Part shown: piece by piece, positions 8,285-52,632 of the stretch
Numbering within the stretch: the stretch's first letter is position 1
How the letters are laid out: the number at the start of each line of letters is the position of its first letter
Origin: Candidatus Deferrimicrobium sp.
GTDB taxonomy: Bacteria; Desulfobacterota; Deferrimicrobia; Deferrimicrobiales; Deferrimicrobiaceae
NCBI RefSeq assembly: GCF_036396855.1
Contig: NZ_DASWKA010000043.1
Coordinates: 2,762-66,761, forward strand
Direction: 5' to 3'
DNA: 64,000 nt
Program-made: the position numbers and the translations under genes
The notes under the pieces: generated by a model
What the model was told of the DNA's origin: nothing
Databases searched by the model: none
The model's input: the letters and a program-made list of their open reading frames with translations, nothing else

Positions 8285-8328
8285 GATTTCCGCACAATCA
8301 ATATATAATGGAGAAGGGGTGCCCCGGG
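8285..8328. promoter_or_regulatory. divergent intergenic region with an AT-rich patch (CAATCAATATATAAT)
   Basis: This is the only AT-rich stretch between the divergent 8284(-) and 8308/8329(+) genes. No consensus boxes could be assigned with confidence. Confidence 0.25.
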
Positions 8329-8949
8329 ATGAACATACGCGCAGTGCTGCTGCTGGCGACGCTGGCGGCGGTTTTTTCTCCTTCCTCCGCCGGGGAAGCG
8401 AAGGCGGATCCCCCCGCGTCGGCGACGATCCGGGGAGGATGCGACGTCGCTTTCCTCATCAGGTCCACCTTGCACGACATTCCCGGCTCCGCCCGTTGCC
8501 TGCCCTTTGCAGCGGTCCTTGCCCGCGACGCCGCCGGCAGGCAGGTCGTCCCGTCCGTGGAAGTGGAAGTGCCGGTGGAGGGGATGGACACGCGGAACCG
8601 GTCCCGCGACGGCCAGATGCGGGAGATGTTCCGGTCGGAGCGGTTTCCGCGAATCCACGCGGCGGCGCATAATGTGGATGTCGAACGGCTCCGGGCGGAA
8701 ACCGGAAACGGCCGCAAGGGGATCGCCTCCATCGACCTGCTCCTTCGGATTCGGGACAGGGAACGAAAGGTGCGCGCCACGGCGAGCAACCTGAAGGAGG
8801 CCGGCGAACAGGTCACCTTCGACATCGAGTTCCCCGTGTCGCTCGGGGAATTCGATCTGAAAGCCCCCTCCGTTCTCGGATTCATCCGTGTCGGGGACAA
8901 GGTCACCGTCAAGGCAAACTTCACCCTGACCGTTTCCCGATCTCCTTGA
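8308..8949 (+). CDS. secreted YceI-like (polyisoprenoid/lipid-binding) domain protein
   Basis: Signal peptide MNIRAVLLLATLAAVFSPSSAGEA (alternative start 8329, preceded by GAAGGGG). The YceI-like pattern is VEVPVEGMDTRNRSRDGQMREMFRSERFPRI, followed by beta-rich repeats. Confidence 0.6.
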   Translation: MEKGCPGMNIRAVLLLATLAAVFSPSSAGEAKADPPASATIRGGCDVAFLIRSTLHDIPGSARCLPFAAVLARDAAGRQVVPSVEVEVPVEGMDTRNRSRDGQMREMFRSERFPRIHAAAHNVDVERLRAETGNGRKGIASIDLLLRIRDRERKVRATASNLKEAGEQVTFDIEFPVSLGEFDLKAPSVLGFIRVGDKVTVKANFTLTVSRSP

Positions 8950-8982
8950 GGCGCATCCTATTGTAAGGGACGGAGGCACCCG

Positions 8983-10137
8983 ATGACCGCCTGGATCCAC
9001 CGGATCGACACGCTGCTTCCCGATTTCTCCTTCGCCCAGGAGGCGGCGATGGTGAAGATGCAGGAATGGGCTCGCGACGACCGGGAGCGGCGCCTGGTAC
9101 GCGCCGTTTACCGTCACTCGGGGATCGAGCGCCGCCACTCCGTCCTTCGAAACTACGATGGGGAAGGGGAGGGCGCATTCTTCCGGCCGGACGCCGGTGG
9201 AGCGCTTCGAGGCCCCGGGACCGCCGCCCGCAACGACATCTTTTCGACCGAGTCCCGCGCGATGTCGGTGGCGTTGGCCCGGAAGGTGATCGGAAACTGT
9301 CCCGGCGTCGCTCCCCCCGACGTGACGCACGTCGTGACCGTGTCGTGCACCGGGTTCTACAACCCCGGGCCCGACTACTACATCGTCCGCGAACTGGGGA
9401 TGTCCGACGCCACGCAGCGGTACCACCTCGGCTTCATGGGGTGCTACGCCGCCTTCCCCGCCTTGCGGATGGCCGCCCAGTTCTGCGCGGCGGACCCGTC
9501 CGCCGTGGTCCTCGTGATGTGCCTCGAGCTGTGCAGCCTCCACATCCAGTTGAACGGATCGGAGGACAACCTGCTCGCGAACTCGCTCTTCGCCGACGGG
9601 GCGGGGGCTGCGATCGTATCCGCCCGGGAGCCGGATCCGGGAACGCCCGCATATCGGCTGGCCGGTTTCCGTTCCGCGCTGGTTTCCGCCGGCGAGCAGG
9701 ACATGACGTGGAGGATCGGCGACCAGGGGTTCGACATCGCCCTGTCGAGCTACGTGCCGAAGCTGATCGGCTCGAACATCCGCGAGCTGGTCGGACCCGC
9801 ACTCGCCGCCGGGGGTCTGTCCACGTCCGACATCGCCACGTGGGCGGTCCACCCCGGGGGGAAGTCGATCATCGACCAGGTGCAGAGGACCCTCGGACTT
9901 TCCGACGACCAGGTGAGCGCCTCCCGCGAAGTGCTGCGCCGGCGCGGAAACATGAGCAGCGCCACCATCCTCTTCGTCCTCGAGGAGATCCTCAAGCGTC
10001 CCGCAGGGAAAGAGAGGGAGAGGGTCTGCGCCGTCGCGTTCGGGCCGGGGTTGACCGTAGAGACGGCGACCATGGAAGCGATCTTCGCTCCGGATGCCGT
10101 CGGGGCAGCCGCGGCGTTCCCCCTCCCGGCAGGATGA
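8983..10137 (+). CDS. type III polyketide synthase (chalcone/stilbene synthase family)
   Basis: Catalytic Cys in VTVSCTGFYNPGPDY, His in WAVHPGGKSII, Asn in RRGNMSSATILFVL, and C-terminal FGPGLTVE. Confidence 0.92.
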   Translation: MTAWIHRIDTLLPDFSFAQEAAMVKMQEWARDDRERRLVRAVYRHSGIERRHSVLRNYDGEGEGAFFRPDAGGALRGPGTAARNDIFSTESRAMSVALARKVIGNCPGVAPPDVTHVVTVSCTGFYNPGPDYYIVRELGMSDATQRYHLGFMGCYAAFPALRMAAQFCAADPSAVVLVMCLELCSLHIQLNGSEDNLLANSLFADGAGAAIVSAREPDPGTPAYRLAGFRSALVSAGEQDMTWRIGDQGFDIALSSYVPKLIGSNIRELVGPALAAGGLSTSDIATWAVHPGGKSIIDQVQRTLGLSDDQVSASREVLRRRGNMSSATILFVLEEILKRPAGKERERVCAVAFGPGLTVETATMEAIFAPDAVGAAAAFPLPAG

Positions 10138-11387
10138 GGCTCTCCGTCGCCACGAATTTCGACCCCGCGCTGGTCGATGCGCTCCGGGGGTTCCCGGTCG
10201 TCGAACTGTTCGGCAAGTTGCGGGAGGACGCAGTGGGCGGCGGGCGCGCTCCCTACCAGCTCGCGCCGGTGTCCCGGAAGGGGCTTGCCGCGCACGTGCG
10301 GTTTGCCCGGGCGGCGGGCATCTCCTTCAACTATCTCCTCAACGCGTCCTGCCTCGGCAACCGGGAGATCACGCGCGCCGGGCAGGCGGAGATCGAGAAC
10401 CTCTGCGGCTGGCTTTGCGGCATCGGCGTGGAGACGGTCACCGTTTCCTCCCCGTTTCTCCTTCGAATCGTCAAGACGCGCTACCCGGAGCTCAAGGTCC
10501 GGATCTCCGTTTTCGCGGGCGTGGATCGCGTGCGCAAGGCGCGGATGTGGGAGGAGATGGGCGCGGACGGGATCGTCCTCGACAGCCTCCTCGTGAACCG
10601 GGAATTTTTCACGCTGGCCCGGATCCGCGAATCGGTGAAATGCGACCTCGAGCTGCTGGTGAACAACAACTGCCTCTACTCCTGCGCCCTCTCCCCGGCC
10701 CACATGAACGCCCTGGCCCATGCCGGCCAGAAATGGCACGGAAACCGCGGCTTCTTCATCGACGGCTGCTTCCTGCGGTGCACGGAGATGAAGCTGCGGG
10801 ATCCCGTGAATTACATCCGCTCGGAGTGGATCCGCCCGGAAGACATCTCCGCGTACGAGGAAATGGGGTACGACCTGTTCAAGGTGACGGAGCGGGACCT
10901 TCCCACGCCGGTGATGGTCAACCGGGTCCGGGCCTACGCGGCGCGCCGGTACGACGGCAATCTCCTCGACCTGGTCCAGCCGTACGCCTTGCAGGGGGTG
11001 AGCGGGAGCGAACGGTACTACCGGAAGGGGATCGGGTGGCAGCGAAGGTTCCTCCTTCGACCGGGGCTGGTGAACCCCGCCCGGATGCTCCCGCTGAAGC
11101 GGCTGGCGGACATGCGGCACATGACCCGTCCGGTGACGGGTGCGCCTCCGGTGGTCGTCGACAACCGGGCGCTCGACGGCTTCATCGAAAGGTTCCGGGA
11201 GAAAGGGTGCCGCGACGTGGAGTGCGAGGCGTGCCGCTGGTGCCACGATTTCGCGGCGAAGGCGGTCCGGATCGATCCGGAGGAGAGCCGACGGGCGCTG
11301 GCGGCGTATGACGAGGTGTTCCGCTCCCTCGACGGCGGGGCGATGTGGCGGTACCTCCCGGGCGGGAACGGGGTCGGCGACCCGTGA
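10134..11387 (+). CDS. U32-family (peptidase U32 / UbiU-UbiV-TrhP superfamily) protein
   Basis: ATG 10134 overlaps the PKS stop (ATGA); ORF 9066..11387 is trimmed accordingly. N-terminus is MRLSVATNFDPALVDAL..ISFNYLLNASCLGN..VETVTVSSPFLLRIVKTRYPELKV. A Cys block, NNNCLYSC...GCFLRC, could bind an Fe-S cluster. The family call is from memory of U32 architecture and needs an HMM. Confidence 0.6.
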   Translation: MRLSVATNFDPALVDALRGFPVVELFGKLREDAVGGGRAPYQLAPVSRKGLAAHVRFARAAGISFNYLLNASCLGNREITRAGQAEIENLCGWLCGIGVETVTVSSPFLLRIVKTRYPELKVRISVFAGVDRVRKARMWEEMGADGIVLDSLLVNREFFTLARIRESVKCDLELLVNNNCLYSCALSPAHMNALAHAGQKWHGNRGFFIDGCFLRCTEMKLRDPVNYIRSEWIRPEDISAYEEMGYDLFKVTERDLPTPVMVNRVRAYAARRYDGNLLDLVQPYALQGVSGSERYYRKGIGWQRRFLLRPGLVNPARMLPLKRLADMRHMTRPVTGAPPVVVDNRALDGFIERFREKGCRDVECEACRWCHDFAAKAVRIDPEESRRALAAYDEVFRSLDGGAMWRYLPGGNGVGDP

Positions 11388-12118
11388 CCGTGCGATTCCG
11401 CCTCAAGGCGCGGGAGTGGCTCGACGTCCCGGAGCGGAAGCGGGTCTACAACGAACGCCACTTCGCCGTGGCGGCGTCGCGGTACGACCTGGCGACGCGC
11501 ATGATGTCGCTCGGGCGGGACGCGGCGTGGAAGCGGGCGCTCATCGCGGCCTTGCCGGACTTCCCGGCCCCCGTTTGCGTCGATCTTGCGTGCGGCACCG
11601 GCGACGTGGCCTTCCTTCTCGCGGGACGCTACCCCGAAGGGGACGTCACAGGGCTGGATCTTTCCGCGCCGATGCTGGCGATCGCGCGGGAGCGGAACCG
11701 GTTCACGAACGTCCGGTTCGAGCGGGGCGACCTGTGCTGCCTCCCGTTTCCCGACGGTTCCGCCGATGTCGTTACCGGGAGCTACGCCCTTCGCAACGCT
11801 CCCGACCTTTGGAAAGCCGTCGCCGAGGTCCGCCGGGTGCTTTCCCCCGGCGGCGTGGCGGCGTTCCTCGACTTTTCGAATCCGGAGCGTTCCCTCCTCC
11901 GGTATTCGCAATACCTTCTTCTGCGGAGCTGGTGCGGCCTCTGGGGATTCCTCCTTCACGGGACGCCGGAAATCCACGGATATGTCGCGGAGAGCCTGCG
12001 GGAGTTCCCGGACCGGAACCGGTTGCGGGAAATCTTCCGGGAGAACCGGTTCGAGGTGTCGGCGGAACGCCGTTATTATCTCGGGATCACGGGATTGGTT
12101 CTCCTGCGTCCGGCATGA
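11345..12118 (+). CDS. UbiE/MenG-family class I SAM-dependent C-methyltransferase
   Basis: FAVAASRYDLATRMMSLGRDAAWKR..VDLACGTGDVAF..GLDLSAPML..LPFPDGSADVVTGSYALRNAPD..RVLSPGG..FLDFS matches the UbiE pattern closely. An alternative GTG start at 11384 overlaps the upstream stop (GTGA). Confidence 0.85.
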   Translation: MAVPPGRERGRRPVTVRFRLKAREWLDVPERKRVYNERHFAVAASRYDLATRMMSLGRDAAWKRALIAALPDFPAPVCVDLACGTGDVAFLLAGRYPEGDVTGLDLSAPMLAIARERNRFTNVRFERGDLCCLPFPDGSADVVTGSYALRNAPDLWKAVAEVRRVLSPGGVAAFLDFSNPERSLLRYSQYLLLRSWCGLWGFLLHGTPEIHGYVAESLREFPDRNRLREIFRENRFEVSAERRYYLGITGLVLLRPA

Positions 12119-12155
12119 CGTTTCCGTTGACTCGAAAACGTGGTAACTTTGAAAA

Positions 12156-13070
12156 ATGGCGATTGAAATGGAGAATTCCGGAAGGCCCGCCGCAGCGGGC
12201 AAGTCTACCGGTTCCTACCGTCACGGTCTCGCCCGCCCCGCCTCCTACAAGATCGGCTATTCCCTCGGGAAGTGGCTTCCGAGAGCGGTTCTGTTCGCCC
12301 TCGCGGACCTCCTCGCCGACGCCACGCACTGGACGAATCCGGAACCGGCCCGGAATCTCCAGGCGAACTTGCGATCGGCCTTCCCACGATGGTCCGAGCG
12401 GGAAGTCGAAGAATTCTCAAAGAGGATTTTCCGGAACTTCGCCCGCAATCTGGTCGATTACGGACGATTCCCTACGATCACGGACGAAGCGCTGGATCGG
12501 TTGCTTCCCTCCGTCCAGAACCTCCACTTCATGGAAGAGTCCTTCGCAAAGGGAAAGGGGGTCATCCTCGTGACCGGCCACATCGGTAACTGGGAACTGG
12601 GCGCCCTGTTCTTCGGCCGGCACGGCTTCAAGATCAACGTCGTAACGATTCCCGAAGGGAGCGAGCGGATCGATTCGATCCGCGGAGCATATCGCACGCG
12701 CCAGAACATCCGCACGATTGTCGTCGACGGTTCCCCGTTCTCCTCCCTCGAGATCGTGGCGGCGCTCCGCAGGGGGGAGATCGTCGCCATGCTCGTGGAC
12801 CGGTGGGAAGGCGCCGACGGCGTACCGGCGAAATTCTTCGGCGCGGATCGTCGTTTCCCCCGAGGCCCGTTCGTTCTTGGACGGGCGATGGGCGCCCCCA
12901 TTCTCCCCGCGTTCATCGTCCGGGAGGGAAGCGTCTACCGGGGAGTCGTCGATCCCCCTTTTTTCGTGGAGGAGCCGGAGGATGAGCCCGGGGCGCGACG
13001 GGTAAGCGAGTCTCTCGAACGGATGGTTCGGGCCTGCCCGGACCAATGGTATGATTTCGCACCTCGTTGA
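12156..13070 (+). CDS. LpxL/HtrB-type lipid acyltransferase (lysophospholipid acyltransferase superfamily)
   Basis: Catalytic-box motif VTGHIGNWELG, plus the downstream VAMLVDR and FPRGP motifs typical of lauroyl/myristoyl acyltransferases. Confidence 0.8.
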   Translation: MAIEMENSGRPAAAGKSTGSYRHGLARPASYKIGYSLGKWLPRAVLFALADLLADATHWTNPEPARNLQANLRSAFPRWSEREVEEFSKRIFRNFARNLVDYGRFPTITDEALDRLLPSVQNLHFMEESFAKGKGVILVTGHIGNWELGALFFGRHGFKINVVTIPEGSERIDSIRGAYRTRQNIRTIVVDGSPFSSLEIVAALRRGEIVAMLVDRWEGADGVPAKFFGADRRFPRGPFVLGRAMGAPILPAFIVREGSVYRGVVDPPFFVEEPEDEPGARRVSESLERMVRACPDQWYDFAPR

Positions 13071-13101: not shown

Positions 13102-14679
13102 ATGGGGCCATTGAAGCGATCCTCGCCGGGGAATGCGGCTGGCGCGGAAGGGGAAGCGCGGTACTCTCTCGGAGGGGAGAAGGTCCTCCCCGTGCGGACG
13201 ATCCTCCCGAAGAAAACGCGTTCCCTGTGCCCGGAGTGTCTTCAAACGGTCCCCGCCGGTCTGTACGAAGAGAAGGGGCGGGTGATGATGCGGAAGCGTT
13301 GCCCGGATCACGGCACGTTCACCGACGTCATCTTCTCGGACGTGGAGATGTACCTCCGCCTGGGGCAGTGGTATTTCGGGGACGGAGAGGGATTCGCGAA
13401 CCCCATCGACGGCATGGGGAAGGAGTGCCCGAACCGTTGCGGCATCTGCGGGTCGCATTCGACGCACACCTCCCTCGCCAATATCGACCTCACCGCGCGC
13501 TGCAACCTGTCCTGTTCGGTCTGCTTCGCGGACGCCAACCGGAATTCGTTCGAACCGTCGTTCGAACAGGTGGTGGAGATGCTCCGCCGTTTTCGCGCCC
13601 AGCGTCCTGCGCCGGCATTCGCCGTCCAGTTCACGGGGGGCGAGCCTACGCTGCACCCGCGATTTCTCGATATCGTGGCCGAAGCGCGGAAAATGGGGTT
13701 TTCCCACCTCCAGGCGGCCACCAACGGCATTCGGTTCGCCGACCCTGAGTTCGCGCGCAGAGCGCGGGATGCCGGGCTCCATTACCTGTACCTGCAGATG
13801 GACGGGACGACCGACGACGTCTTCCTGAAGATCCGCGGGAAGGCGTTGCTGGACACCAAACTCCGGGTGATCGATTCCGCGCGGAAGGCCGGTCTCCGCG
13901 TCATCTTCGTCCCCACCATCGTGAAAGGGGTGAACGACCACCAGATCGGGGACCTCTGCCGCCTGGCCTTCGACCATCTCGACGTGCTGTCGGGGATTTC
14001 CTTTCAGCCGATGACGTTCACGGGGAGGTACCCCGAATCGGAGCGCGAGAAACTTCGATTCACCCTTTCGGACCTTTCCCGGGAGTTCAGCCGCCAGACC
14101 GGGCTCACCCACCCCCTGGAGGATTGGTTCCCCCTGAACGCCGCGGTTCCCCTGGTCCGATACGCGGGGGCCGTAACGGGGAACGTGGCGGTGAACCACG
14201 CGTGCCATCCCCATTGCGGGTTGATGACCCTGTTTTTCGTCGGCCGGAACCGCGAGGCCGTCCCGATCACGAGGTTCCTCGACCTCCGGGGACTTCTCGG
14301 AGAGGTGGAACGGCTGACGGGGAGCGCGAGGGCGAGCCGGGTCAAGAGCTTGTCGAAGATCCGCGCCCTCCAGGCTTTTTACCGGTTTTTCCGGGAGGAC
14401 CGGGCTCCGGCCGGGTTGACGTTTCTCCGCTTTCTCAAGACCCTCGACGGGTTCGCCGAAAAGAAATACAGTTGGGACGGAAAGCACGAAGGGCACACAT
14501 TTAAGACCTTCTATGTCCTCGGGATGCATTTCATGGATGCCTACAATTACGACCTCGAGCGCGTGTCGCGCTGCGGCGTTCATTATTCGGCCCGCGACGG
14601 AAGAATCTACCCGTTTTGCACCTACAACTCGGGACCCGTCCACCGTCATCGTATAGAGAATTCGATTGCGTCTTCTTGA
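13102..14679 (+). CDS. radical SAM protein with an N-terminal Cys-rich (zinc-ribbon/rubredoxin-like) region; resembles the tetraether-lipid-synthase (Tes/GDGT-MAS, MJ0619-type) family
   Basis: CNLSCSVC radical SAM triad preceded by CPECL..CPDHG and CPNRCGICGSH. AAGGAG sits 8 nt upstream of ATG 13102 (longer ORF from 13051). The radical SAM call is secure. The Tes-like subfamily call is from memory and tentative. Confidence 0.8.
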   Translation: MGPLKRSSPGNAAGAEGEARYSLGGEKVLPVRTILPKKTRSLCPECLQTVPAGLYEEKGRVMMRKRCPDHGTFTDVIFSDVEMYLRLGQWYFGDGEGFANPIDGMGKECPNRCGICGSHSTHTSLANIDLTARCNLSCSVCFADANRNSFEPSFEQVVEMLRRFRAQRPAPAFAVQFTGGEPTLHPRFLDIVAEARKMGFSHLQAATNGIRFADPEFARRARDAGLHYLYLQMDGTTDDVFLKIRGKALLDTKLRVIDSARKAGLRVIFVPTIVKGVNDHQIGDLCRLAFDHLDVLSGISFQPMTFTGRYPESEREKLRFTLSDLSREFSRQTGLTHPLEDWFPLNAAVPLVRYAGAVTGNVAVNHACHPHCGLMTLFFVGRNREAVPITRFLDLRGLLGEVERLTGSARASRVKSLSKIRALQAFYRFFREDRAPAGLTFLRFLKTLDGFAEKKYSWDGKHEGHTFKTFYVLGMHFMDAYNYDLERVSRCGVHYSARDGRIYPFCTYNSGPVHRHRIENSIASS

Positions 14680-15451
14680 GTTCGCGCGATCCCCATGGAT
14701 CTCCCGCGGGACCCGGGACGCTACACTAAGGTGGATCGTTTCCGCCACGCTCCTTGCGCTGCTCCTTTCTCCTCGGCCGAACTTCGCGGAGGAAGCCGTC
14801 CCGGACGGCAAGAGGATCACGGGAGCGGAGAGGGACCGCTGGTTCGAGGAGATCCGCGATCGCCAGAAGGGGGTCACCGGCTGGAGCGCCGCGGTGGTGC
14901 AGCGGAAGCGGGACCCGCTCCTGAAGCACGAGGCGGTGTCCAGGGGGAAGTTGTCGTTCCGGAAGCCGGCCTCGCTTCGATGGGAAGTGGAGAGCCCCGA
15001 AAGAAGGATCGTGGTGATGGATGGCCGGACGGTGACCGCCTATTATCCGAAGAGAAAGGAGGCCGAGCGGAGGGACATGCAGGACGATTTCGCGGCCCGC
15101 GCCGCGCTGGGTTTTATCGAATCGGGGATCTCCGCTTCCCTCCCCGAACTGGAACGACGATTCCAGGTCGACCTTTTCCGGTCAGAGAACCAGGTGGTAC
15201 TGCGGTTGACCCCGCGCTCGAAGATGCTGTCCCGCGTCATCGCATCGATCCGGGTCCACCAGGATCCTGTGGAGGGAGGGCCGCGTCGAATCGTGGTCGA
15301 GGGAGCCCGCGGGGATCGGACCGAGACGACGTTCTCCGGGGTGACACTCAACCCCGAATTTCCCCCGGACACCTTTTCCTTGCGGCTGGGACCCGAGGTC
15401 AGAGTCACGGAAACGGGGGGACCGGAACGGGACCGGATCGATTCGCCATGA
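14666..15451 (+). CDS. LolA-like outer-membrane lipoprotein carrier family protein
   Basis: TTG start and a signal-like segment, IVSATLLALLLSPRPNFAEE. LolA-like pattern: GKLSFRKPASLRWEVESPERRIVVMDGRTVTAYYP. Confidence 0.65.
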   Translation: MRLLEFARSPWISRGTRDATLRWIVSATLLALLLSPRPNFAEEAVPDGKRITGAERDRWFEEIRDRQKGVTGWSAAVVQRKRDPLLKHEAVSRGKLSFRKPASLRWEVESPERRIVVMDGRTVTAYYPKRKEAERRDMQDDFAARAALGFIESGISASLPELERRFQVDLFRSENQVVLRLTPRSKMLSRVIASIRVHQDPVEGGPRRIVVEGARGDRTETTFSGVTLNPEFPPDTFSLRLGPEVRVTETGGPERDRIDSP

Positions 15452-16713: not shown

Positions 16714-16784
16714 GGGAATCGCTTCGCAAGCCGCGTCCGCGGGCACGGGATACGAAATCAGGAAACGGAGATGAGCGAAGGGCG

Positions 16785-17615: not shown

Positions 17616-17616
17616 C

Positions 17617-17814
17617 GTGCGTGTGCCGCGATATGGGATCTCGCTGGCCGTTTCCGCGGCGGTGGCCGCGGGGGTTCTTTCCGCGCTTCTCCTCTTCGTG
17701 TTGTGGGCGGGATGGGCCGGGGCGGCCGGAATCCTGTCGGTTGTGGGGATCTTCCTCGCCTGGTTCTACAGGGGGAGGCGGCCCGACCTGGAGACGGGGA
17801 AGGAGAGAAAGTAG
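17617..17814 (+). CDS. small two-TM membrane protein
   Basis: GTG lies 1 nt after the deacetylase stop. About 65 aa with two hydrophobic helices (ISLAVSAAVAAGVLSALLLFVLW / AAGILSVVGIFLAWF). Its stop abuts the next ATG. Confidence 0.45.
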   Translation: MRVPRYGISLAVSAAVAAGVLSALLLFVLWAGWAGAAGILSVVGIFLAWFYRGRRPDLETGKERK

Positions 17815-18918: not shown

Positions 18919-18939
18919 GACGCCGAACCCCGTAAGAGG

Positions 18940-19515: not shown

Positions 19516-19586
19516 TCGGGTTTCCTCCTCCTCCGGAACCGCCGGCGGCAAGACCGGGCGAATCCCGCGGTTATTGGTGATGGATA

Positions 19587-20735: not shown

Positions 20736-20749
20736 CTTCGGGGCATACC

Positions 20750-22045: not shown

Positions 22046-22069
22046 GGGAGCGACGCCACGCGGACCATC

Positions 22070-25061: not shown

Positions 25062-25101
25062 ACGATTCTCCTCGGGATCGCGCCGTCTTCGCGCGCGATG
25101 T

Positions 25102-26442: not shown

Positions 26443-26455
26443 TTCCGTCTCCGTG

Positions 26456-41121: not shown

Positions 41122-41145
41122 CAGGACTGCCGGAACTGGGGCCCG

Positions 41146-45336: not shown

Positions 45337-45353
45337 AACGCTCCCAGGATGGC

Positions 45354-46138: not shown

Positions 46139-47659
46139 GTGCGATACGGGGAAAGCCGTGTATTCTTGGAGGTGATGAAATCCGCCGGAACGGAAGGGTG
46201 GTGGGGTGTGAATGTACTGCTCCTGAGGCCGAATCCGGGAAACGAGCGGTTCGGTCTCGGCCCTTTCTTTCGGGTCGAACCGCTGGGCCTCGAGTATATC
46301 GGGGCGGCGTTGCGCGTCCACGGCCACGCTCCGACGGTGGCGGACCTCCGTTTTCGCCCCGGCGCGTCCTCCTGGGTGCGGCGGACGCGGCCGCGGGTCG
46401 TCGGCATCTCCTGCACGCACGCCCTGGAGTACGACAAGGTGCGGGAGACCGCGCGCGAGGTCCGGAGGGCTTCGCCGGGGGTTTTCGTGGTCGTCGGCGG
46501 ACACGCGGCGGCGTGCCATCCGTCCCCGCTCGAGGTCGATGAGATCGACGCGATCTGTATCGACGACGGGGAGGAGATCGTTCCGGCGCTGGTCGATGCC
46601 GTCGGGAAGGGGACCCCCCTGGAAACAGTGCCCGCACTTCGCCTTCGGACACGGAACGGGTGGGTGTCCACTCCGCCCTCTCCGGCGCCGACGTCCCTGG
46701 ACGCCGTCCCCTTGCCGGCGCGCGACCTGGTGAGCCGTCACCGCAACGGATACCATTGCCTCCTCTTCAAGCCGGTGGACCTCGTGGAGACGGCCCGCGG
46801 ATGCCCGCACCGTTGCAGTTTCTGTTCCGTGTGGCAACTGTACGGGAGAACCTTCCGGGAACGGTCCATCGGGGCCGTCGTCGAGGATTTCGCCACGGCG
46901 GGGGATTCCATCTTCGTCGCCGACGATCTCTTCTGGAACCACGCGGAGCGAAGCCTCGAACTCGCGTGTGCCCTCCGGAAGCGCGGAGTGAAAAAACGGT
47001 GGATCCTCGTGCAGACCCGCACCGACATGATCTGTCGACAGCAAGAGCTTCTGGAGGCGTGGAGGCCCCTCGCGAGGGACTTCGACATCTTCCTCGGACT
47101 GGAGTCCGCTAGCGATGCGGGCCTGTCCATGGTGGACAAGGACGTTCCGGTTTCGGAGAGCGTCGATGCGGTGCGGATCGCGCGGTCCCTGCGATTCGGC
47201 GTGAACGGCAACTTCCTGGTCGATCCCGACTGGGGAGAGGAGGATTTCCGCCGGCTCTGGGAGTTCGTCGCCTGCCATGGATTGCAGCGGGCGGGGTATA
47301 CCATCCTCACTCCATTGCCGGGAACCGATTATTTCCGGAAGCTCGCGCCCCGGCTCGCGGGGCAGCCCTGGTCCAGCTACGACATGCACCACGTCCTCTG
47401 GGAGCCCCGCCTCGGTGCGAGAAGATTTTTCGAACTCTACGCGGAGACCTGGCGCAAGTCGATCCTCAACACGTCGGGCGAGAAACGGTGGGTCGACTGG
47501 ATGCGGCAGATCCGGCCGGCAGAGATACCGTACCTCGCGCGCGTTTTATGGCGCACCCAGAGGATGATGAACGCCGGGGCCTACCTCCGTGAGCACGGCA
47601 AGACGAGTCGTGCCCCGATGCCCGTCCGATCCCCCTCGGGCGTCGGTGCGCCGCGCTGA
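46139..47659 (+). CDS. B12-binding domain radical SAM protein (methylase-like)
   Basis: VNVLLLRPNP..EPLGLEYIGAAL (B12 domain) and the ARGCPHRCSFC triad. The exact start is uncertain (46139, or ATG 46175). Confidence 0.88.
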   Translation: MRYGESRVFLEVMKSAGTEGWWGVNVLLLRPNPGNERFGLGPFFRVEPLGLEYIGAALRVHGHAPTVADLRFRPGASSWVRRTRPRVVGISCTHALEYDKVRETAREVRRASPGVFVVVGGHAAACHPSPLEVDEIDAICIDDGEEIVPALVDAVGKGTPLETVPALRLRTRNGWVSTPPSPAPTSLDAVPLPARDLVSRHRNGYHCLLFKPVDLVETARGCPHRCSFCSVWQLYGRTFRERSIGAVVEDFATAGDSIFVADDLFWNHAERSLELACALRKRGVKKRWILVQTRTDMICRQQELLEAWRPLARDFDIFLGLESASDAGLSMVDKDVPVSESVDAVRIARSLRFGVNGNFLVDPDWGEEDFRRLWEFVACHGLQRAGYTILTPLPGTDYFRKLAPRLAGQPWSSYDMHHVLWEPRLGARRFFELYAETWRKSILNTSGEKRWVDWMRQIRPAEIPYLARVLWRTQRMMNAGAYLREHGKTSRAPMPVRSPSGVGAPR

Positions 47660-47817
47660 CCCGAGGGGTTCCTCGACGGCGGTGATGGCCGGAATGGGTG
47701 GAAGAACGGAGCCGGACGTTCTCCTCCCCCCCAGGCCGCACGGATCGTGCGCTCGCGGTGTGACGGGTGGTTTCCGGGAAGAATTATCCGTTGCCTGGAG
47801 CGGCTTCGCGCCTTAAT

Positions 47818-48177
47818 ATGACGGGATTCCCGGCAGGTGCCACCCCGCCGTGTTCATCAAAGGGGAAGGAAGGAGGAAACGCTCTGGAAACGGAGGAAGC
47901 GAAAAAGAAGATCCGGGAAATCCTGTCCGTTCGTCTGAATCTCTCAACGGCGGTCGAGAAGATCGACGATGATGCGCCGCTGTTCGGGCCCGGCAGCATC
48001 GGACTCGACTCGATCGATGCGCTGGAACTGGTGCTCGGCATCCAGAAGGAGTTCGGCGTCGCAATCGAGGATCGAGCGCTGGCGGTGAGGGTGCTGGCAT
48101 CCATCGGGACCATCGCGGAATACCTGAAGTCCTTATCGGCAGGGAGCCCCGAAGCGGCGGGCGGAAGCAACTCATAG
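47818..48177 (+). CDS. acyl carrier protein (ACP 4)
   Basis: IGLDSIDALELVLGI. ATG 47818 is the first canonical start. A perfect AGGAGG (47871..47876) sits 7 nt before an in-frame CTG (47884), which would give a normal-length ACP. Confidence 0.8.
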   Translation: MTGFPAGATPPCSSKGKEGGNALETEEAKKKIREILSVRLNLSTAVEKIDDDAPLFGPGSIGLDSIDALELVLGIQKEFGVAIEDRALAVRVLASIGTIAEYLKSLSAGSPEAAGGSNS

Positions 48178-48202
48178 CTCCCTGTGATGCGGGTTCACTA
48201 AG

Positions 48203-49054
48203 GTGCCGAAGACGTGCTTCAACCCATGCCTGCTTTGCGGTCGTGATGCGCCTCAACCCGTCGCGGTCCGGAAGGGATTCCCCATCGTCCGTTGTGGTGG
48301 ATGCGGTCTCGTCTACATGCATCCGAGGCCGCCGAAGGAGGATCTCCCCGGGCTCTACGGGGAGTATCATGCTCGTGACGGCGGGAACGAGACTGGCTGG
48401 AATCGCCTCATGGGGAAAATTTTTCGGGAAGCGGCCGACCACCTTGATGCATTGAGAAAAGGGTCCGGTCCATCCCGCCTCCTGGATGTCGGGTGCGGGT
48501 ACGGTGGATTCGTCTCGCTGATGCGGGATCGGGGGTGGGACGCGGAAGGGGTCGACCCGTCCCCGGTGACGGTTCACGCCGCCTCGGCGAAAGGCATTCC
48601 CGTCCGTCGGGGAACCCTCGAGGAATTTTCCCGTTCGGGCGGGGCATACCGCGCGATCACCATGTTTTACGTGTTGGAACACCTCTTCGATCCGATGTCC
48701 GCGTTAAGAAAGGTGTTCGCGCTCCTCGAACCGGGCGGGGTGCTCCTGGTGCGGGTTCCCGACACCACGCCGATCGTCCGCCTGCTTTCCCCGTTCGGAT
48801 TGGGAGGCCGGTTATACGACCCCCCCTTTCACCTCTTCGACTTTCCGCCCCGCGTGCTCACGCGGATGCTCGCCGAGGCGGGCTTCGGGAACATTCGGAC
48901 GTTCCCGGGCCGCAACACGATCCCCCCCCGCATCGTGCCGCGGCTTGCCACCAAGCTGTTCGGCGCGCTCGCCCGAGGCCTGTTCGCGGGGACCGGCGGG
49001 AGGATCCTCCTCCCCGGGGTCAGCAAAACCACCATCGCGCGAAAGCCCTCCTGA
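48203..49054 (+). CDS. class I SAM-dependent methyltransferase with an N-terminal Cys4 zinc ribbon
   Basis: GTG start. CLLCG..CGGCGLVYMHP, motif I LLDVGCGYGGF, and LEPGGVLLVRVPD. Confidence 0.82.
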   Translation: MPKTCFNPCLLCGRDAPQPVAVRKGFPIVRCGGCGLVYMHPRPPKEDLPGLYGEYHARDGGNETGWNRLMGKIFREAADHLDALRKGSGPSRLLDVGCGYGGFVSLMRDRGWDAEGVDPSPVTVHAASAKGIPVRRGTLEEFSRSGGAYRAITMFYVLEHLFDPMSALRKVFALLEPGGVLLVRVPDTTPIVRLLSPFGLGGRLYDPPFHLFDFPPRVLTRMLAEAGFGNIRTFPGRNTIPPRIVPRLATKLFGALARGLFAGTGGRILLPGVSKTTIARKPS

Positions 49055-51592
49055 GTGACGACCCGGTTCCTTCTGCGCCTGGCTCGCATGATCGACGCCC
49101 GACCGGGGAAGATCGCCGTCGCCGTTCTGCTCGCCGCCGCCGTTTCCGGTGCGGTGGTGCTGCGTATCCCGATCCGGACGAACCTGCTGGACGTTCTTCC
49201 GGAAGGGAACCCGACGATTCAGGCATTCCGGGGGTTCCTCGAGGATTTCGGCATGATGGACAGCCTGGTCCTGGTGGTCACGTCGCGCGAGGGGTCGCCG
49301 GACCGGCTGATCGAGGCGGTGGAGACGATCGGTGAGGAACTGGCCGCTTCACCGAGGATCGCTTCGGTCGACTACAATCTCCTCCGATCCGGGGGACGGT
49401 ATGTCGGGGAACATTTCCCCGCCTACCTCGATTCGGGAGGGGTGGGCCTCCTTTCGGATCGTCTCTCCCCGGAAGGGATCCGGCGGCAGATCCGGAGGAA
49501 CCGGGAAGTCCTGCTCTCCCCGTTTGCTTCCCCGCTCGACGCGGAGTGGATTTCCGGAGATCCGCTGAACCTCAGGGAGATCGTCCGGGAGAGCCTGCTC
49601 CGCAGGACGGTCACCAAGGGGATCGACCTTTCCACGGGGTATTACATGGATGCGGACCGGACCGTCGCCCTCCTGATGGTGCGTCCGAGGGGATCCTCGA
49701 GAGACACGGCGTTCGTCGCCGGGTTGTACCGGGAGGTCGCCGGAATCGCGGCGAGGGCCTCCGGGGGTTCCGGGGCCGATGCCGGGATCGCGGTCGGTCT
49801 CGCGGGGGAGTATGCGAGCGTCGCGGAGGCGACCGGCGTGATCTGGCGGGACATGGTCTTCTCCTTTTTCTCCTCCTTCGTCCTGGTCCTGGTGCTCGTC
49901 TTCGCGGCGTATCGTCCTCCCGCGGCCGTCCTTTGCGCACTCGTCCTGACGCTGCTCGCCGCCCTCTCCTGGACGCTCCTGTTCGCCTACCTGCTGTACG
50001 GGGGGCTGAACATCGTGACCAGCATCGTCGCCGCGATGCTGATCGGCCTGTACGTCGATTACATAATCATCGTCTACCATCGCTTCAACGGGGAAATCCG
50101 GAGGGGAAGGTCCCCCCTTCAGGCGCTGGAGACCACCTACTCCGAAACGGGGAAGGCGCTCCTCATCAGTTCCGCGACGAGTTCCATCGCATTCTTCTCC
50201 GTGGTCGTGACCAGTTTCCGGGGGCTCCACGAACTGGGGGTCGTGGCCGGGTTCGGGATCCTGTTCTGCCTCCTGTCCACGGTATTCGTGATGGGATCCC
50301 TCCTCTCCTGGTTCGCGAAGGTTTCCCCGGCGCGGATCGCGGCGGGGAGACCCGGCGGCGTCCCGACGGGGTGGGCGGAACGGCTGGTCGAAGGGAGGAG
50401 CGGAACCGTCGTGGCGGTTTTTTCGATCTTCCTTTTCCTGGCGATCCTCGGATCGGCGCGAACCCGGTTCGACGCGGGGGTCGATGCGATCGGCCCCGTC
50501 GACAGCAAGGTGGAGCAGGTCCAGCGCGTGATCGAGGAGAAATTCGGGAGGAAAGGGGAGCCGCTCTTTCTCGTGGCGCGTGCGGACGGCGACCGGCGGC
50601 TCGCCGCGGATTTCGACGCCCTCGATCTCCAGGGGGAGCGATGGAGGCGGGCGGGGATGGTGGAAGGGTTCTCTTCCGCGGCGATGCTGGTGCCCCCCCC
50701 CCGTTTCCAGAAGGAGTCGCGGAGGCTCTTGTCCGATGCCGGCCTGCCGGGGCGGTACGACGATGCGGGCCTCGAGAGGGCGATCCGCCGGGAGATGGAG
50801 GCCCAGGGGATGGTTCCGGGGGACGGCCTTGCGGCGTATGCCGCGGGGATCGTCCGCGCCCTCGCCGGGGAGGAGGCCGTCGACCTGCCCGGGTTTGCCC
50901 GCTCCGGTGACCCCCGGACGACGTATTTCTTCAACGGGTCCCGCCATGCGATCGCCGCCCACCTGGCGCCGCCCGGCGGGCGGTGGGGCCAAGGGGCGCT
51001 CGCCGCCATGAAGGAAGACGTGCGGGCCCTGGGTCCGGACTTCGCTCTGACGGGTCCGCCCCTCATCCTCGAGGAGATCCGCTCCTCGGTCGTGTGGGAA
51101 AGCACCCTCGCCACGCTCATCGCCTTCGCGGCGAACTGGATCATCGTATGGTTTCACTTCCGCCGCCTGCGCGATACGGCGCTCGTGATGCTGCCGGTGA
51201 CGGCGGGATCGCTCCTCACCGTGGGCGCCATGGGGGCGATCGGGATACCCTTCAACTTTTTCAACGTGGTGGGGATCGCCCTCCTCTTCGGGTTCGGGGT
51301 CGACTACGGGATCTACTACATGCAGTCCCACAGGGAGAGGTCCGAGGGGGGAGCCGTGGAGGCGCTTCACCGGACCGGGGGCGGCATCCTCCTCTGCTCG
51401 GTCACGACCCTGGCCTCCTGCGGAAGCATCATCCTTTCCCATTACAGGGGGCTGGCGTCCATCGGCGTCGTGCTCTGCCTCGGAGCGGTCTCCTGCATTC
51501 TTTCGACGGTCCTGCTGCTCCCTTCCCTGATCGACAGGATCGAACGCCCGCGACCGTGGAAGGCTCCGCGGGTCTTCAAGGAAACATCATGA
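49055..51592 (+). CDS. MMPL/RND-superfamily lipid exporter
   Basis: 845 aa with two 6-TM bundles (..LVLVLVFAAYR.., ..LLFGFGVDYGIYY..), each preceded by a large periplasmic domain. Starts immediately after the previous stop. Confidence 0.88.
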   Translation: MTTRFLLRLARMIDARPGKIAVAVLLAAAVSGAVVLRIPIRTNLLDVLPEGNPTIQAFRGFLEDFGMMDSLVLVVTSREGSPDRLIEAVETIGEELAASPRIASVDYNLLRSGGRYVGEHFPAYLDSGGVGLLSDRLSPEGIRRQIRRNREVLLSPFASPLDAEWISGDPLNLREIVRESLLRRTVTKGIDLSTGYYMDADRTVALLMVRPRGSSRDTAFVAGLYREVAGIAARASGGSGADAGIAVGLAGEYASVAEATGVIWRDMVFSFFSSFVLVLVLVFAAYRPPAAVLCALVLTLLAALSWTLLFAYLLYGGLNIVTSIVAAMLIGLYVDYIIIVYHRFNGEIRRGRSPLQALETTYSETGKALLISSATSSIAFFSVVVTSFRGLHELGVVAGFGILFCLLSTVFVMGSLLSWFAKVSPARIAAGRPGGVPTGWAERLVEGRSGTVVAVFSIFLFLAILGSARTRFDAGVDAIGPVDSKVEQVQRVIEEKFGRKGEPLFLVARADGDRRLAADFDALDLQGERWRRAGMVEGFSSAAMLVPPPRFQKESRRLLSDAGLPGRYDDAGLERAIRREMEAQGMVPGDGLAAYAAGIVRALAGEEAVDLPGFARSGDPRTTYFFNGSRHAIAAHLAPPGGRWGQGALAAMKEDVRALGPDFALTGPPLILEEIRSSVVWESTLATLIAFAANWIIVWFHFRRLRDTALVMLPVTAGSLLTVGAMGAIGIPFNFFNVVGIALLFGFGVDYGIYYMQSHRERSEGGAVEALHRTGGGILLCSVTTLASCGSIILSHYRGLASIGVVLCLGAVSCILSTVLLLPSLIDRIERPRPWKAPRVFKETS

Positions 51593-52632
51593 AGGGGATC
51601 GGTCCGGCATGCGCGATCATCCCCGCCTATAACGCGGAGGAGACGGTCGGGCCCGTTGTGAAAGGGGCGCTCGCTCTCCTGCCGATGGTCATCGTGGCGG
51701 ACGACGGTTCCACCGATGCGACCGCGCGGGTCGCGGAGGGCGCGGGCGCCCTGGTGATCCGGGTACCGGTAAACCGCGGGAAGGGACATTGTCTGCGCCT
51801 GCTGTTCGCGGAGGCCAGGAAGAGAGGATTCGACGCCGTCGTCGCGCTGGATTCGGACGGGCAGCACGATCCGGTGGACATCCCGCGGTTTCTCGATGCC
51901 CATCGGAAAGACCCCGGGGCCGTCATCGTCGGATCGAGGATGGCCGATGAAGAAGGGATCCCCGTTCACCGGAAAAATTCGATGCTGGTCGCCAGATTCT
52001 ACGTCTGTCTCGCGGCCAACCGCTACATCGACGATACCCAATGCGGGTATCGGCTTTACCCGCTGTCCGTTGTGGAGTCGATCGCGCTTCTCAAGGAACG
52101 CTACGTGATGGAAACCGAACTTCTCCTGAAGGCCGGGGACTCGGGAATTCCGATCCGCTCGTTGCCGATCCCCGCCGTCTATCTTCCGGCGCAGAAGACG
52201 TACTTCCGTTCCGTGCCGGATGTGGCGGCGATTTCCGTCTACGTCATCTCCTACATCATGGTCAAGTGGGCGTTGGAGCTGTTGCGCCCGGGGGAGGTCA
52301 ACACCTACAAGGGGCCCGGCTCCGGGCGGGACCGGTTTTTCCTTTCCCCCGCCATGGACAGGGCGTTCGAGAGCCTGATGGTCCTGACCTGCATGCCGTT
52401 GAGCGCCTTGTACGGCGTCCTGTATTTCCTCCTGCGATCCCTGTTCGGCATCCGGGTGTTCGAGGGGTTGAAGGGATGCGGAGTCCCTGTCGGAAGGGTG
52501 TTTCTCTCCACGATGCTCCTTCCGCTGTTGCTGGTCGTATCCATCGTCGACCTCGTCGGGAACCGTGTCGGGCTTCGCCCTGGCCTTACCTCCCGGTTCG
52601 TGGCGAAATGGTACCCGAATCTCTGGAAATGA
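51589..52632 (+). CDS. family-2 glycosyltransferase with a C-terminal membrane region
   Basis: ATG 51589 (ATGA overlap). IIPAYNAEE, VADDGSTD, LDSDGQHDP and QCGYRLYP. Hydrophobic C-terminal helices. Confidence 0.88.
   Translation: MKGIGPACAIIPAYNAEETVGPVVKGALALLPMVIVADDGSTDATARVAEGAGALVIRVPVNRGKGHCLRLLFAEARKRGFDAVVALDSDGQHDPVDIPRFLDAHRKDPGAVIVGSRMADEEGIPVHRKNSMLVARFYVCLAANRYIDDTQCGYRLYPLSVVESIALLKERYVMETELLLKAGDSGIPIRSLPIPAVYLPAQKTYFRSVPDVAAISVYVISYIMVKWALELLRPGEVNTYKGPGSGRDRFFLSPAMDRAFESLMVLTCMPLSALYGVLYFLLRSLFGIRVFEGLKGCGVPVGRVFLSTMLLPLLLVVSIVDLVGNRVGLRPGLTSRFVAKWYPNLWK

Follow-up and report, generated by a model that had tools for sequence, protein, structure and literature searches.

The stretch of DNA analysed here (the window) comprises 64,000 nucleotides of contig NZ_DASWKA010000043.1 (positions 2,762 to 66,761, forward strand; RefSeq assembly GCF_036396855.1, Candidatus Deferrimicrobium sp.), and the host is an uncultivated anaerobe related to Candidatus Deferrimicrobiaceae. 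Our subject is a dense block of lipid genes at positions 8308–52632, in which type II fatty acid synthase (FAS) and polyketide synthase (PKS) components stand beside a type III PKS, a tetraether-synthase (Tes) homologue and a set of envelope export genes. Genes were called with a codon-usage log-odds model self-trained on the long open reading frames (ORFs) of the window, which has a G+C content of 65% and contains many spurious ORFs. A total of 64 genes were called, 45 of them (g7–g51) within 8308–52632. These 45 form three strand blocks, namely g7–g17 (plus), g18–g46 (minus) and g47–g51 (plus), and neighbouring genes mostly overlap by 4 bp or are separated by gaps of less than 40 bp. Families were assigned by Pfam and NCBIfam profile scans of the window proteins, with PDB matches for selected genes, as follows (S-adenosylmethionine, SAM; acyl carrier protein, ACP; ketosynthase, KS; chain-length factor, CLF; glycerol dialkyl glycerol tetraether, GDGT).

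7772–8284, minus strand: ICMT/PEMT-like membrane methyltransferase, the first gene, divergently oriented, in the type III PKS cassette (Pfam ICMT 82 bits)
8308–8949, plus strand: g7, secreted YceI-like lipid/polyisoprenoid-binding protein (Pfam YceI 41.7 bits), found beside the type III PKS also in L087 and L088
8983–10137, plus strand: g8, type III PKS of the long-chain alkylresorcinol/alkylpyrone-synthase type (Pfam Chal_sti_synt_N and Chal_sti_synt_C)
10134–11387, plus strand: g9, U32-family protein (Pfam Peptidase_U32), translationally coupled to g8 and g10
11384–12118, plus strand: g10, UbiE/MenG-family quinone-type C-methyltransferase (Pfam Ubie_methyltran 120 bits; TIGR01934 158.4 against a cut-off of 158.35)
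12156–13070, plus strand: g11, LpxL/PatA-type acyltransferase (Pfam Lip_A_acyltrans 120 bits)
13102–14679, plus strand: g12, radical SAM protein of the Tes/GDGT-MAS family (NF045702 499.1 bits against a cut-off of 450)
14666–15451, plus strand: g13, LolA-like periplasmic carrier (Pfam LolA 58 bits; LolA2_flexi 59, below the cut-off of 125)
15538–17814, plus strand: g14, ATP-grasp ligase; g15, NodB-type deacetylase with DUF3473; g16, 65-amino-acid membrane peptide (Pfam)
17815–18918, plus strand: g17, class-I SAM methyltransferase (Pfam Methyltransf_25 and Methyltransf_11)
18940–23272, minus strand: first half of the variable dialkylresorcinol (dar) cassette, with g18, lipoprotein with lipobox; g19, cyclising KS of the StlD/DarB family; g20, B12 radical SAM protein; g21, GT2-DUF2062 protein
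23272–24801, minus strand: g22, fusion of a NodB-type deacetylase and a methyltransferase (Pfam), in all close relatives, with a partial match only in L006
24798–28722, minus strand: second half of the dar cassette, with g23, DarC-like ACP; g24 and g25, ABC-2 exporter; g26, DarH; g27, DarG-family protein
28745–29590, minus strand: g28, MipA-family outer-membrane protein (Pfam MipA 139 bits)
29587–37212, minus strand: radical-SAM/FAS unit (Pfam/NCBIfam), with g29, CLF-like; g30, KS; g31, ACP; g32, LpxL-type acyltransferase; g33, B12 radical SAM; g34, TIGR04072 B12 radical SAM; g35, divergent B12 radical SAM
37185–46082, minus strand: aryl-polyene-like FAS/PKS unit, condensing and transfer genes (Pfam/NCBIfam), with g36, short CLF-like; g37, KS; g38, 4HBT thioesterase; g41, PlsC; g42, ACP; g43 and g45, KS
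37185–46082, minus strand: the same unit, redox and dehydration genes, with g39, ApeI-like and g40, ApeP-like dehydratases; g44, CrtI-like (amine-oxidase) flavoenzyme; g46, ketoreductase (KR)
46139–52632, plus strand: g47, HpnR-like B12 radical SAM; g48, ACP; g49, methyltransferase; g50, MMPL/HpnN-like exporter; g51, GT2 (Pfam/NCBIfam)

The profile scans bear out nearly every item of the inventory in a first-pass annotation, which had been made by reading the letters of the window and had taken all of these genes for one combined lipid pathway without precedent. All six radical SAM proteins (the five B12-type proteins g20, g33, g34, g35 and g47, and in addition g12) carry the CX3CX2C motif. 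Four KS (g30, g37, g43 and g45) are complete, with Cys-His-His, and the alignment shows their partners g29 and g36 to be Cys-less. There are four discrete ACPs (g23, g31, g42 and g48), two NodB-type deacetylases (g15 and g22), two GT2 enzymes (g21, the DUF2062 fusion, and g51) and acyltransferases of LpxL type (g11 and g32), PlsC type (g41) and BtrH-like type (g26); the export components are MMPL (g50), ABC-2 (g24/g25), LolA-like (g13), MipA (g28) and YceI (g7) proteins and the lipobox lipoprotein g18. Class-I methyltransferase domains number four inside the region (g10, g17, the C-terminus of g22, and g49) and not at least five as had been counted, the fifth being the ICMT-like one outside it, at 7772–8284. 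Curated NCBIfam cut-offs with precise names were passed by five proteins (g12, g34, g19, g26 and g27), and g10 came barely over that of TIGR01934. The supposed KASIII, g19, is a FabH-like KS, more exactly a cyclase of the StlD/DarB type (NF005293 548 against a cut-off of 450; StlD 5GK0, E = 1.6e-124; 448 on the narrower DarB model, below its cut-off of 550). The DarG-family gene g27 had been left unnamed, and the dar gene set had likewise gone unrecognised. The right boundary of the region holds, with a ccsA-like gene and hem genes from 52746; on the left, the first cassette edge lies at 7703–7772 instead of 8308.

We compared the window with relatives that are about 90% identical to it, reading presence and absence from nucleotide alignments. 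The segment 7703–12138, which holds the type III PKS genes, is a discrete, independent inserted cassette of 4.4 kb. Five relatives (L001, L005, L007, L009 and L089) align to the window until 7702 and resume at 12139 (12216 in L001), and in place of the 4.4 kb they have a spacer of ~125 bp (165 bp in L001). In another close relative, L087, a stretch colinear with 7772–12065 (82% nucleotide identity) lies at a site with RNase PH/Ham1 and aldo-keto reductase genes, far from Tes, and L088 has a separate operon of YceI, type III PKS, an MMPL gene of its own, a 225-aa protein, U32 and UbiE-type methyltransferase. The left breakpoint of the insertion falls within the signal-peptide coding part of an oligopeptide-binding protein gene. 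The ICMT-like gene at 7772–8284, which has 84% amino acid identity to an ICMT gene beside YceI in L087, has no stop of its own, and its reading frame runs on into that gene's lipoprotein signal peptide (ORF 6200–8284); this read-through looks like an insertion scar. At 7703 and 12138, the search for flanking repeats gave short chance-level matches only, and no integrase or transposase was found.

Further segments of the region vary among the relatives in the same alignments.

17805–23238 and 24788–28738 (g17–g21 and g23–g27): present together in the window, in L001 + L084, in L007 and in L008; absent in L089, L096, L100 and L006
28733–29664 (MipA): absent in L084
31930–33125 (ACP g31 and LpxL g32): absent in five relatives
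34592–35921 (g34): absent in three relatives, present in L100

That the two dar segments vary together supports their being one functional module despite the position of g22 between them; in L009, g17 and part of g21 remain. Among the relatives sampled in full, the closest (L001 + L084, on one 145-kb contig) shows g11–g46 in the order of the window, without the PKS cassette and MipA. The locus views reach 10 kb of flank, and in the closest relatives the right arm g47–g51 lies outside the view. In L111, a relative of ~70% identity with the same chromosomal site, only g11-g12-g14-g47-g15-g16-g17-g49-g51 are present, within 9.1 kb, and the gene that comes next, HAD-GH65, is unrelated. This minimal cassette means that g11–g17 and g47–g51 are the two arms of one older cassette, between which the 27-kb minus-strand block was inserted. 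Based on these patterns and on the family assignments, we regard the region as probably, though by no means certainly, a mosaic of separable lipid cassettes feeding a shared outer-membrane export route, not one fixed pathway. All the chemistry proposed below for the single cassettes is read from the known functions of their families, and each specific proposal ranges from doubtful to, at best, an even chance.

Several points weigh against this reading. Close packing of the genes, overlaps of 4 bp where cassettes join and the presence of only one export set fit an integrated pathway too, and the loss of a cassette in a relative is no proof of separate products when the cassettes co-occur; moreover, the relatives compared are metagenome assemblies throughout. 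In four related loci (L142, L145, L149 and L153) LpxL is followed directly by LolA (gaps 92–543 bp) in an otherwise identical gene order that has no Tes, so Tes itself is optional and the "Tes cassette" is not invariant, and L111 has Tes without any KS or ACP. The substrates known for Tes are archaeal isoprenoid ethers, and no bacterial homologue has been assayed (PMC8941075; PMC11868695). For the dar genes, no cluster protein matched a DarA-named (aromatase) family in Pfam or NCBIfam, libraries for which a DarA model is unconfirmed. Finally, the U32 match of g9 is partial (residues 87–183, 38 bits in Pfam), with TrhP weak at 19 bits.

The alternative that survives best is a single integrated pathway, in which all 45 genes would cooperate on one glyco- or amino-lipid, heavily methylated or cross-linked, and the type III PKS product would enter it as a building block. 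Apart from the dense packing and translational coupling, it can draw on the presence of one MMPL and one LolA beside several acyltransferases able to stitch parts together, on the recurrence of the Tes cassette beside KS/CLF, KR and ACP genes in several phyla, and on L008, which also has PKS and methyltransferase genes beside g11. We nevertheless consider it rather unlikely: five close relatives lack the PKS cassette, which in L087 stands unlinked and in L088 forms an operon of its own; the dar genes, MipA, the ACP and LpxL pair and g34 are each dispensable in relatives of ~90% identity; the minimal Tes cassette is without FAS genes; and the g29–g35 unit occurs without Tes. The first-pass annotation had itself named the resolution of the region into independent, unlinked sub-clusters in relatives as an outcome that would speak against its single pathway. 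This is what we see for the type III PKS operon and, to a large extent, for the dar genes, MipA, ACP plus LpxL, and g34. Its unprecedented combined pathway is thus not supported here, and the dar set has a described counterpart.

In the mosaic, the two-armed older cassette is the one that contains Tes. Judged by its sequence, g12 is a true member of the Tes family, as had been suspected, and C(sp3)–C(sp3) coupling of lipid tails is predicted for it. It matches GDGT-MAS (7TOL) over its full length (residues 29–521, E = 2e-112), and the alignment covers the zinc ribbon, the auxiliary-cluster region and CX3CX2C, with the motifs CPxC, CPxxCGxC, CNLxCxxC and the C-terminal RC...FCTYN matched; in Pfam, the protein is recognised by Zn_ribbon_HMPTM and Radical_SAM. 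The likely start is at 13102 (525 aa), since the orthologues have 525 aa; 13051, where the ORF begins, is probably too early by 17 codons. A look-up of the exact g12 sequence gave no match. The archaeal Tes/GDGT-MAS (MJ0619, 7TOL) thus shares with g12 the full length, the zinc-ribbon N-terminus, CX3CX2C and further cysteine motifs, with ~45% identity to the Tes of Thermoplasmata. In contrast to the archaeal enzyme, the g12 clade is bacterial, with LpxL always in its surroundings and LolA, ATP-grasp, deacetylase and B12 radical SAM genes usually there too; there are no archaeal lipid genes near g12, and its substrate is presumably fatty-acyl, not phytanyl.

The distribution of Tes was followed in a scan of one genome per GTDB species, which gave 80 Tes loci, and all window proteins were compared with them by tblastn. 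Where Tes was at least 55% identical to g12, at least one cassette gene stood beside it in 17 of 17 loci (L001–L017), bins labelled NC10 and Nitrospirota included. LpxL lay directly upstream of Tes in all 16 of these loci in which upstream DNA was present, and LolA, ATP-grasp, DUF3473 deacetylase, B12 radical SAM genes and KS come next wherever the contigs extend. Where Tes was at most 50% identical, none of 66 loci had g11, g13, g14 or g15 within 10 kb by tblastn; these loci belong to other bacteria and, at ~45% identity, to Thermoplasmata archaea. In a neighbour-joining tree (a quick distance tree with no support values), the context-linked Tes form one clade apart from the archaeal clade, with Acidobacteriota/Aminicenantes/Anaerolineales sequences as sister. 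No co-transferred methylase was found beside Tes at the archaeal loci checked. Identities of the window Tes to those of Methanomassiliicoccales and other Thermoplasmata (L024–L083) are ~43–48%. The bacterial Tes fall into at least four clades, namely the cassette-linked one, Planctomycetota, a second Deltaproteobacteria/Syntrophaceae clade and Acidobacteriota/Anaerolineales.

The genes around Tes recur with it. A g11-type LpxL adjoins Tes in L001–L014, L016 and L017 and in 15 metagenome loci, and homologues of g47 (59–76% identical) adjoin LpxL-Tes in L002, L010, L013 and L014 and lie inside the minimal cassette in L111. A further metagenome scan, seeded with the deacetylase, extended the set of clusters. 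The distant clusters have the order LpxL-Tes-LolA-radical SAM-ATP-grasp-deacetylase-g16-KS-CLF-methyltransferase (g17-like), continued by KS-radical SAM (g34-like)-KR-ACP (g48-like)-GT2 (g51-like)-methyltransferase (g49-like), with MMPL nearby. The order g14-g15-g16 is kept in these loci, the g17 homologues are 34–48% identical, and homologues of g48, g49 and g51 close the clusters; g15 itself scores 267 on TIGR03006, below the cut-off of 276. In L161 and L164, an ATP-grasp and DUF3473-deacetylase pair (40–44% identical) occurs with MMPL, GT2, methyltransferase and PlsC-type genes and with no matches to Tes, KS or LpxL, and this recurrence hints at a wider "anchor-lipid" module.

We propose that in the Tes cassette a head group of the amino-sugar type would be built by the GT2 enzyme (polyprenyl-phosphate-sugar-synthase-like), an amine-freeing NodB-type deacetylase, the ATP-grasp ligase acting as an amide ligase, and methyltransferases. 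The LpxL/PatA-type acyltransferase may load acyl chains from the dedicated ACP (g48), and the HpnR-like g47 may methylate an unactivated carbon. Tes would then join the terminal carbons of two acyl tails to give a macrocyclic or spanning di-acid lipid, which MMPL and the LolA-like carrier could export outward. The product suggested in the first-pass annotation, a C-methylated or cross-linked long-chain glyco- or amino-lipid delivered to the outer membrane, is a reasonable guess for this cassette from the gene families present.

Alternatively, the genes could serve a pathway of the branched-GDGT (brGDGT) type that yields membrane-spanning core lipids, in which Tes would couple iso-fatty-acyl phospholipid tails and the B12 radical SAM enzymes would add methyls or rings. 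That g12 belongs to the Tes family, that a conserved HpnR-like methylase adjoins it and that a part in the synthesis of brGDGTs has been suggested for bacterial homologues of Tes (PMC8941075; PMC11868695) are in agreement with such a role. However, the cluster contains no ether-lipid genes (PlsA/Ger, ElbD, AGPS), and the conserved partners LpxL, LolA, MMPL, GT2 and deacetylase point to an exported glycolipid, not to a core lipid of the cytoplasmic membrane. In addition, the Tes of the Acidobacteriota metagenome-assembled genome (MAG) loci L021 and L060 lie outside this clade and have no such context, and the cluster family also exists without Tes. A brGDGT-type pathway is therefore unlikely in our view, and an exported glycolipid remains the reading that we prefer for the Tes cassette.

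The minus-strand block begins with the dar genes, and most of their families are named by curated models: g26 is a BtrH-related acyltransferase DarH (NF053550 470 against a cut-off of 300) and g27 a DarG-family protein (NF053536 145 against 70). Taken together, g19, g23–g27, g28 and g29/g30 correspond to the list of dar genes in Azoarcus sp. BH72 and to parts of its arc cluster. In that strain, the dar genes are darK, J, C, I, F, E, D and B, and the arcuflavin cluster has a MipA gene, arcC (PMC3949708). The match of the dar gene set shows that the minus-strand block is a variant of a described type of cluster, that of flexirubin and arcuflavin producers, and not without precedent. At the place expected for darA sits the B12 radical SAM gene g20, which overlaps g19 by 4 bp and has HpnR as its best match (161, below the cut-off). 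The DarB-type cyclase, with DarC, DarH, DarG and the ABC-2 pump, would be expected to provide the partner, a dialkyl-cyclohexanedione or a resorcinol; in place of DarA, it is a B12 radical SAM enzyme that is coupled to DarB.

Two FAS-type units follow. In the radical-SAM/FAS unit, g34 matches TIGR04072 ("lipid biosynthesis B12-binding/radical SAM protein") over model positions 1–443 of 443 with 645.8 bits, against a cut-off of 360. The order g35–g29 is conserved at 57–80% identity in L085, an unrelated 3.47-Mb genome, where GT2-DUF2062 and deacetylase-methyltransferase genes are nearby and no Tes was found within 10 kb. The second unit has the composition by which aryl-polyene clusters are known, a likeness that the first-pass annotation had described correctly: KS with an inactive partner, ApeI/ApeP-type dehydratases, KR, thioesterase, ACPs and no enoyl reductase. 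The export and anchor set corresponds as well, with LolA-like g13, MMPL g50, the GT2 enzymes g21 (with DUF2062) and g51, and the LPLAT-type g41, g11 and g32. The dehydratases g39 and g40 fall short of their Pfam gathering cut-offs (23.3 against 28.5 and 21.6 against 27), and their orthologues in L084 are on record as PF22817 and PF22818. For g46, the best NCBIfam model is the flexirubin FlxB (312, cut-off 340), and FabG NF004200 is passed. According to the scheme we suggest, this FAS of the aryl-polyene type, which has no enoyl reductase, would receive its primer from KS/CLF, not from an aryl acid, and yield an unsaturated acyl chain. The KS/CLF-ACP-LpxL unit with its three B12 radical SAM enzymes (g33–g35) might modify a second chain, and the acyltransferases could join the parts of the product of the minus-strand block. 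A KS/CLF pair of anammox bacteria decarboxylates malonyl-ACP to start chains (bioRxiv 10.64898/2026.05.19.726425).

An ordinary aryl-polyene or flexirubin pigment cluster, with its aryl-starter genes elsewhere in the genome, would account for much of this gene content, including the dar genes, which flexirubin producers also have. The Ape clusters of E. coli and Vibrio contain ApeI/ApeP, KS/CLF, KR, thioesterase, two ACPs, LPLAT, GT2-DUF2062, a LolA-like protein, MMPL and a lipoprotein, and no enoyl reductase. The window matches this gene set and differs in having no ApeH-type adenylating enzyme and in its added radical SAM and dar genes. With the flexirubin (flx/dar, Bacteroidota) and arcuflavin (arc/dar, Azoarcus BH72) clusters, it shares KS and an N-terminal-only KS partner, dehydratases, KR, thioesterase and ACP; a DarB-type cyclase, DarC ACP, both ABC components (permease and ATPase), a BtrH-like protein and, represented here by the DarG family, a conserved hypothetical protein; and MipA, polysaccharide deacetylase, methyltransferase, phospholipid-type acyltransferase, LolA, glycosyltransferase and exporter (PMC3992019; PMC3949708). 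In contrast to these clusters, the window is without tyrosine ammonia-lyase, CoA ligase, XanB2, halogenase and DarA and adds five B12 radical SAM genes, the CrtI-like flavoenzyme and Tes, and its host is an anaerobe outside Bacteroidota and Pseudomonadota. In agreement with the first-pass annotation, none of the 64 gene products of the window is an aryl-starter enzyme (ammonia-lyase or chorismatase with a CoA/ACP or other adenylating ligase) in Pfam or NCBIfam, nor did these libraries reveal an enoyl reductase or an ether-lipid enzyme among them. None of the flexirubin-specific equivalog models is reached, neither FlxB (312, cut-off 340) nor LolA2 (59, cut-off 125), flexirubin DarG (138, cut-off 170) or DarB (g19, 448, cut-off 550), and six radical SAM enzymes have no counterpart in characterised aryl-polyene or flexirubin clusters. 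We therefore consider an ordinary pigment cluster quite improbable.

Least probable of all, and very unlikely, is a ladderane-like or cyclised-chain lipid made by the KS/CLF, the CrtI-like desaturase and the B12 radical SAM set, since, although g34 is a full-length TIGR04072 member and KS/CLF, ACP, dehydratase, phytoene-desaturase-like and B12 radical SAM genes make up the anammox Cluster I set (bioRxiv 10.64898/2026.05.19.726425; PMC2649909), the g34 family is common in Desulfuromonadaceae, Holophaga and others, g34 is missing in some ~90% identical relatives that keep the rest, Desulfotalea has a syntenic cluster and makes no ladderanes (PMC2649909), and it is unproven that those genes have a ladderane role at all (PMC13459092). 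The first-pass annotation was right to draw a link to ladderane-type clusters at the level of gene families: with the anammox "Cluster I" and with the clusters of Desulfotalea/Geobacter (Rattray et al., 2009), the window has in common a dedicated ACP, a KS and its inactive partner, a dehydratase resembling FabZ, a flavoenzyme resembling phytoene desaturase and the TIGR04072 protein. Unlike the anammox Cluster I, the window is not from an anammox organism, its TIGR04072 gene is dispensable in close relatives, and this gene is linked to LpxL and two further B12 radical SAM genes. In the "ladderane-type" clusters of Desulfotalea, Geobacter and Kuenenia, which also share the B12 radical SAM and CrtI-like feature (PMC2649909), the role of these genes is unexplained too (PMC13459092).

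The type III PKS cassette can be considered on its own. By its Pfam domains g8 has the Cys-His-Asn fold of type III PKS enzymes; its best PDB matches are 7CB3 and the M. tuberculosis PKS18 1TED (E ~1e-45), and g8, g9 and g10 are joined by successive 4-bp overlaps. Four clustered cysteines are visible in g9, and its best PDB search result is the generic U32 structure 5D88 only. Homologues of g9 with 67–91% identity occur in several phyla, and three metagenome proteins of 669–684 aa (P0303, P0308 and P0334) are fusions of U32 with a UbiE-type methyltransferase; such "Rosetta-stone" proteins support a functional link between g9 and g10. In L008 (347–2238, corresponding to 8802–12128 of the window; ~90% identical), the PKS is followed directly by the UbiE-type methyltransferase with no U32, and the U32 step is thus optional within one lineage. 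In Geothermobacter hydrogeniphilus (L086, PPFX01000004.1), a U32 homologue of 68% identity stands alone beside a peroxiredoxin and a NifU-like gene, with no PKS, so that this U32 family is not confined to type III PKS operons.

The U32 proteins UbiU/UbiV are O2-independent ring hydroxylases with prephenate as the oxygen donor (PMC6747719; PMC10990095), and g9 is, by family resemblance, a candidate for an enzyme of this kind. We suggest that g8 would form a long-chain alkylresorcinol, the Fe-S enzyme g9 might hydroxylate its ring without O2, as UbiU/UbiV do, the two methyltransferases of the cassette would methylate the ring product, and YceI may bind the methylated product in the periplasm. 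The operon would then be an O2-independent counterpart of the SrsABC/HidABC "polyketide quinone" operons, and it is natural to infer an anaerobic route to hydroxylated and methylated alkyl-phenolic lipids. Like the g8 operon, the SrsABC, HidABC and planctomycetal operons and those of mycobacterial and Streptomyces polyketide quinones combine a long-chain-starter PKS, one or more methyltransferases and a ring-oxidising enzyme (PMC10896814), and the type III PKS operon of "S. ferox" also carries a lipid/isoprenoid-binding protein, comparable to YceI g7 (PMC10896814; PMC9927152). In contrast to the Srs/Hid operons, the U32 protein here occupies the place of the FAD/O2-dependent oxidoreductase (SrsC/HidB), the methyltransferase is of the UbiE/MenG quinone type, and the ICMT-like methyltransferase and YceI are added. 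No FAD-dependent oxidoreductase or hydroxylase partner of the SrsC/HidB kind was found by Pfam in the g8 operon, with the operons of L087 and L088 compared.

Each module of the region is thus of a described kind (Srs/Hid operons, Dar, aryl-polyene/flexirubin, TIGR04072 clusters, Tes). We came across no description of four features: a bacterial gene context that is fixed for one Tes clade, along with a minimal cassette; the substitution of U32 for the flavoenzyme of a type III PKS operon; the pairing of a B12 radical SAM enzyme with a DarB-type cyclase where DarA is lacking; and the exchange of cassettes to this degree within one lineage. The papers on bacterial Tes list homologues without gene context, and a literature search gave no paper with both U32 and type III PKS terms. 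It is a tentative proposal, and one that we think may well fail, that the Tes cassette would be the first defined genetic system with Tes-family coupling of bacterial fatty-acid-derived chains, leading to methyl-branched glycolipids, macrocyclic or spanning the envelope, that would be sent to the outer membrane, and that the PKS-U32-UbiE operon would separately be an O2-independent route to phenolic lipids of the alkyl-quinone type.

Bacterial Tes homologues are the leading candidates for enzymes that form membrane-spanning lipids, including the brGDGTs used as palaeoclimate proxies. The locus and its relatives define a Tes clade with fixed partner genes, a 9-kb minimal version and natural Tes-plus and Tes-minus variants, and the variants and the minimal version make the question of bacterial Tes approachable by cloning and lipidomics. 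According to a 2026 review, ladderanes and the product of Jaw5 (jawsamycin) are the only cases in which radical SAM enzymes have been proposed to modify fatty-acyl lipids (PMC13459092); in the present cluster family, found in several phyla, up to six radical SAM enzymes stand beside type II FAS parts. The use of U32 in place of a flavoenzyme points to a way in which anaerobes could form quinones or hydroxylated phenolic lipids when O2 is absent. For genome mining, the region is a caution that the call of a 44-kb "hybrid" cluster can correspond to several adjacent, independently inherited units.

The closest homologues of Tes, g34 and U32 (80–92% identical) are from metagenome bins labelled Deltaproteobacteria or Candidatus Deferrimicrobiaceae, and taxonomy labels of MAGs are unreliable. 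L006 (JBLMYI010000059.1), binned as "Actinomycetota bacterium", has a cluster ~90% identical to that of the window and is probably mis-binned. A scan of the whole window (1–64000) at Rfam gathering scores gave no family, including no cobalamin riboswitch despite the five B12-type radical SAM genes. By module, G+C at third codon positions (GC3) is 0.80–0.86 inside the region and 0.85–0.89 in the flanks, a difference too small and uneven to serve as proof or dating of a transfer.

The flanking genes are the following.

Left flank: a GH3 gene and an oligopeptide ABC transporter
Right flank, from 52746: a ccsA-like gene, then hemA, hemC, hemD, hemB, an RDD protein, polA and an ECF sigma/anti-sigma pair

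The heme-synthesis operon (52746–57603; ccsA-like, hemA, hemC, hemD and hemB) abuts the cluster directly and has a GC3 of ~0.9, compared with 0.80–0.86 in the cluster genes.

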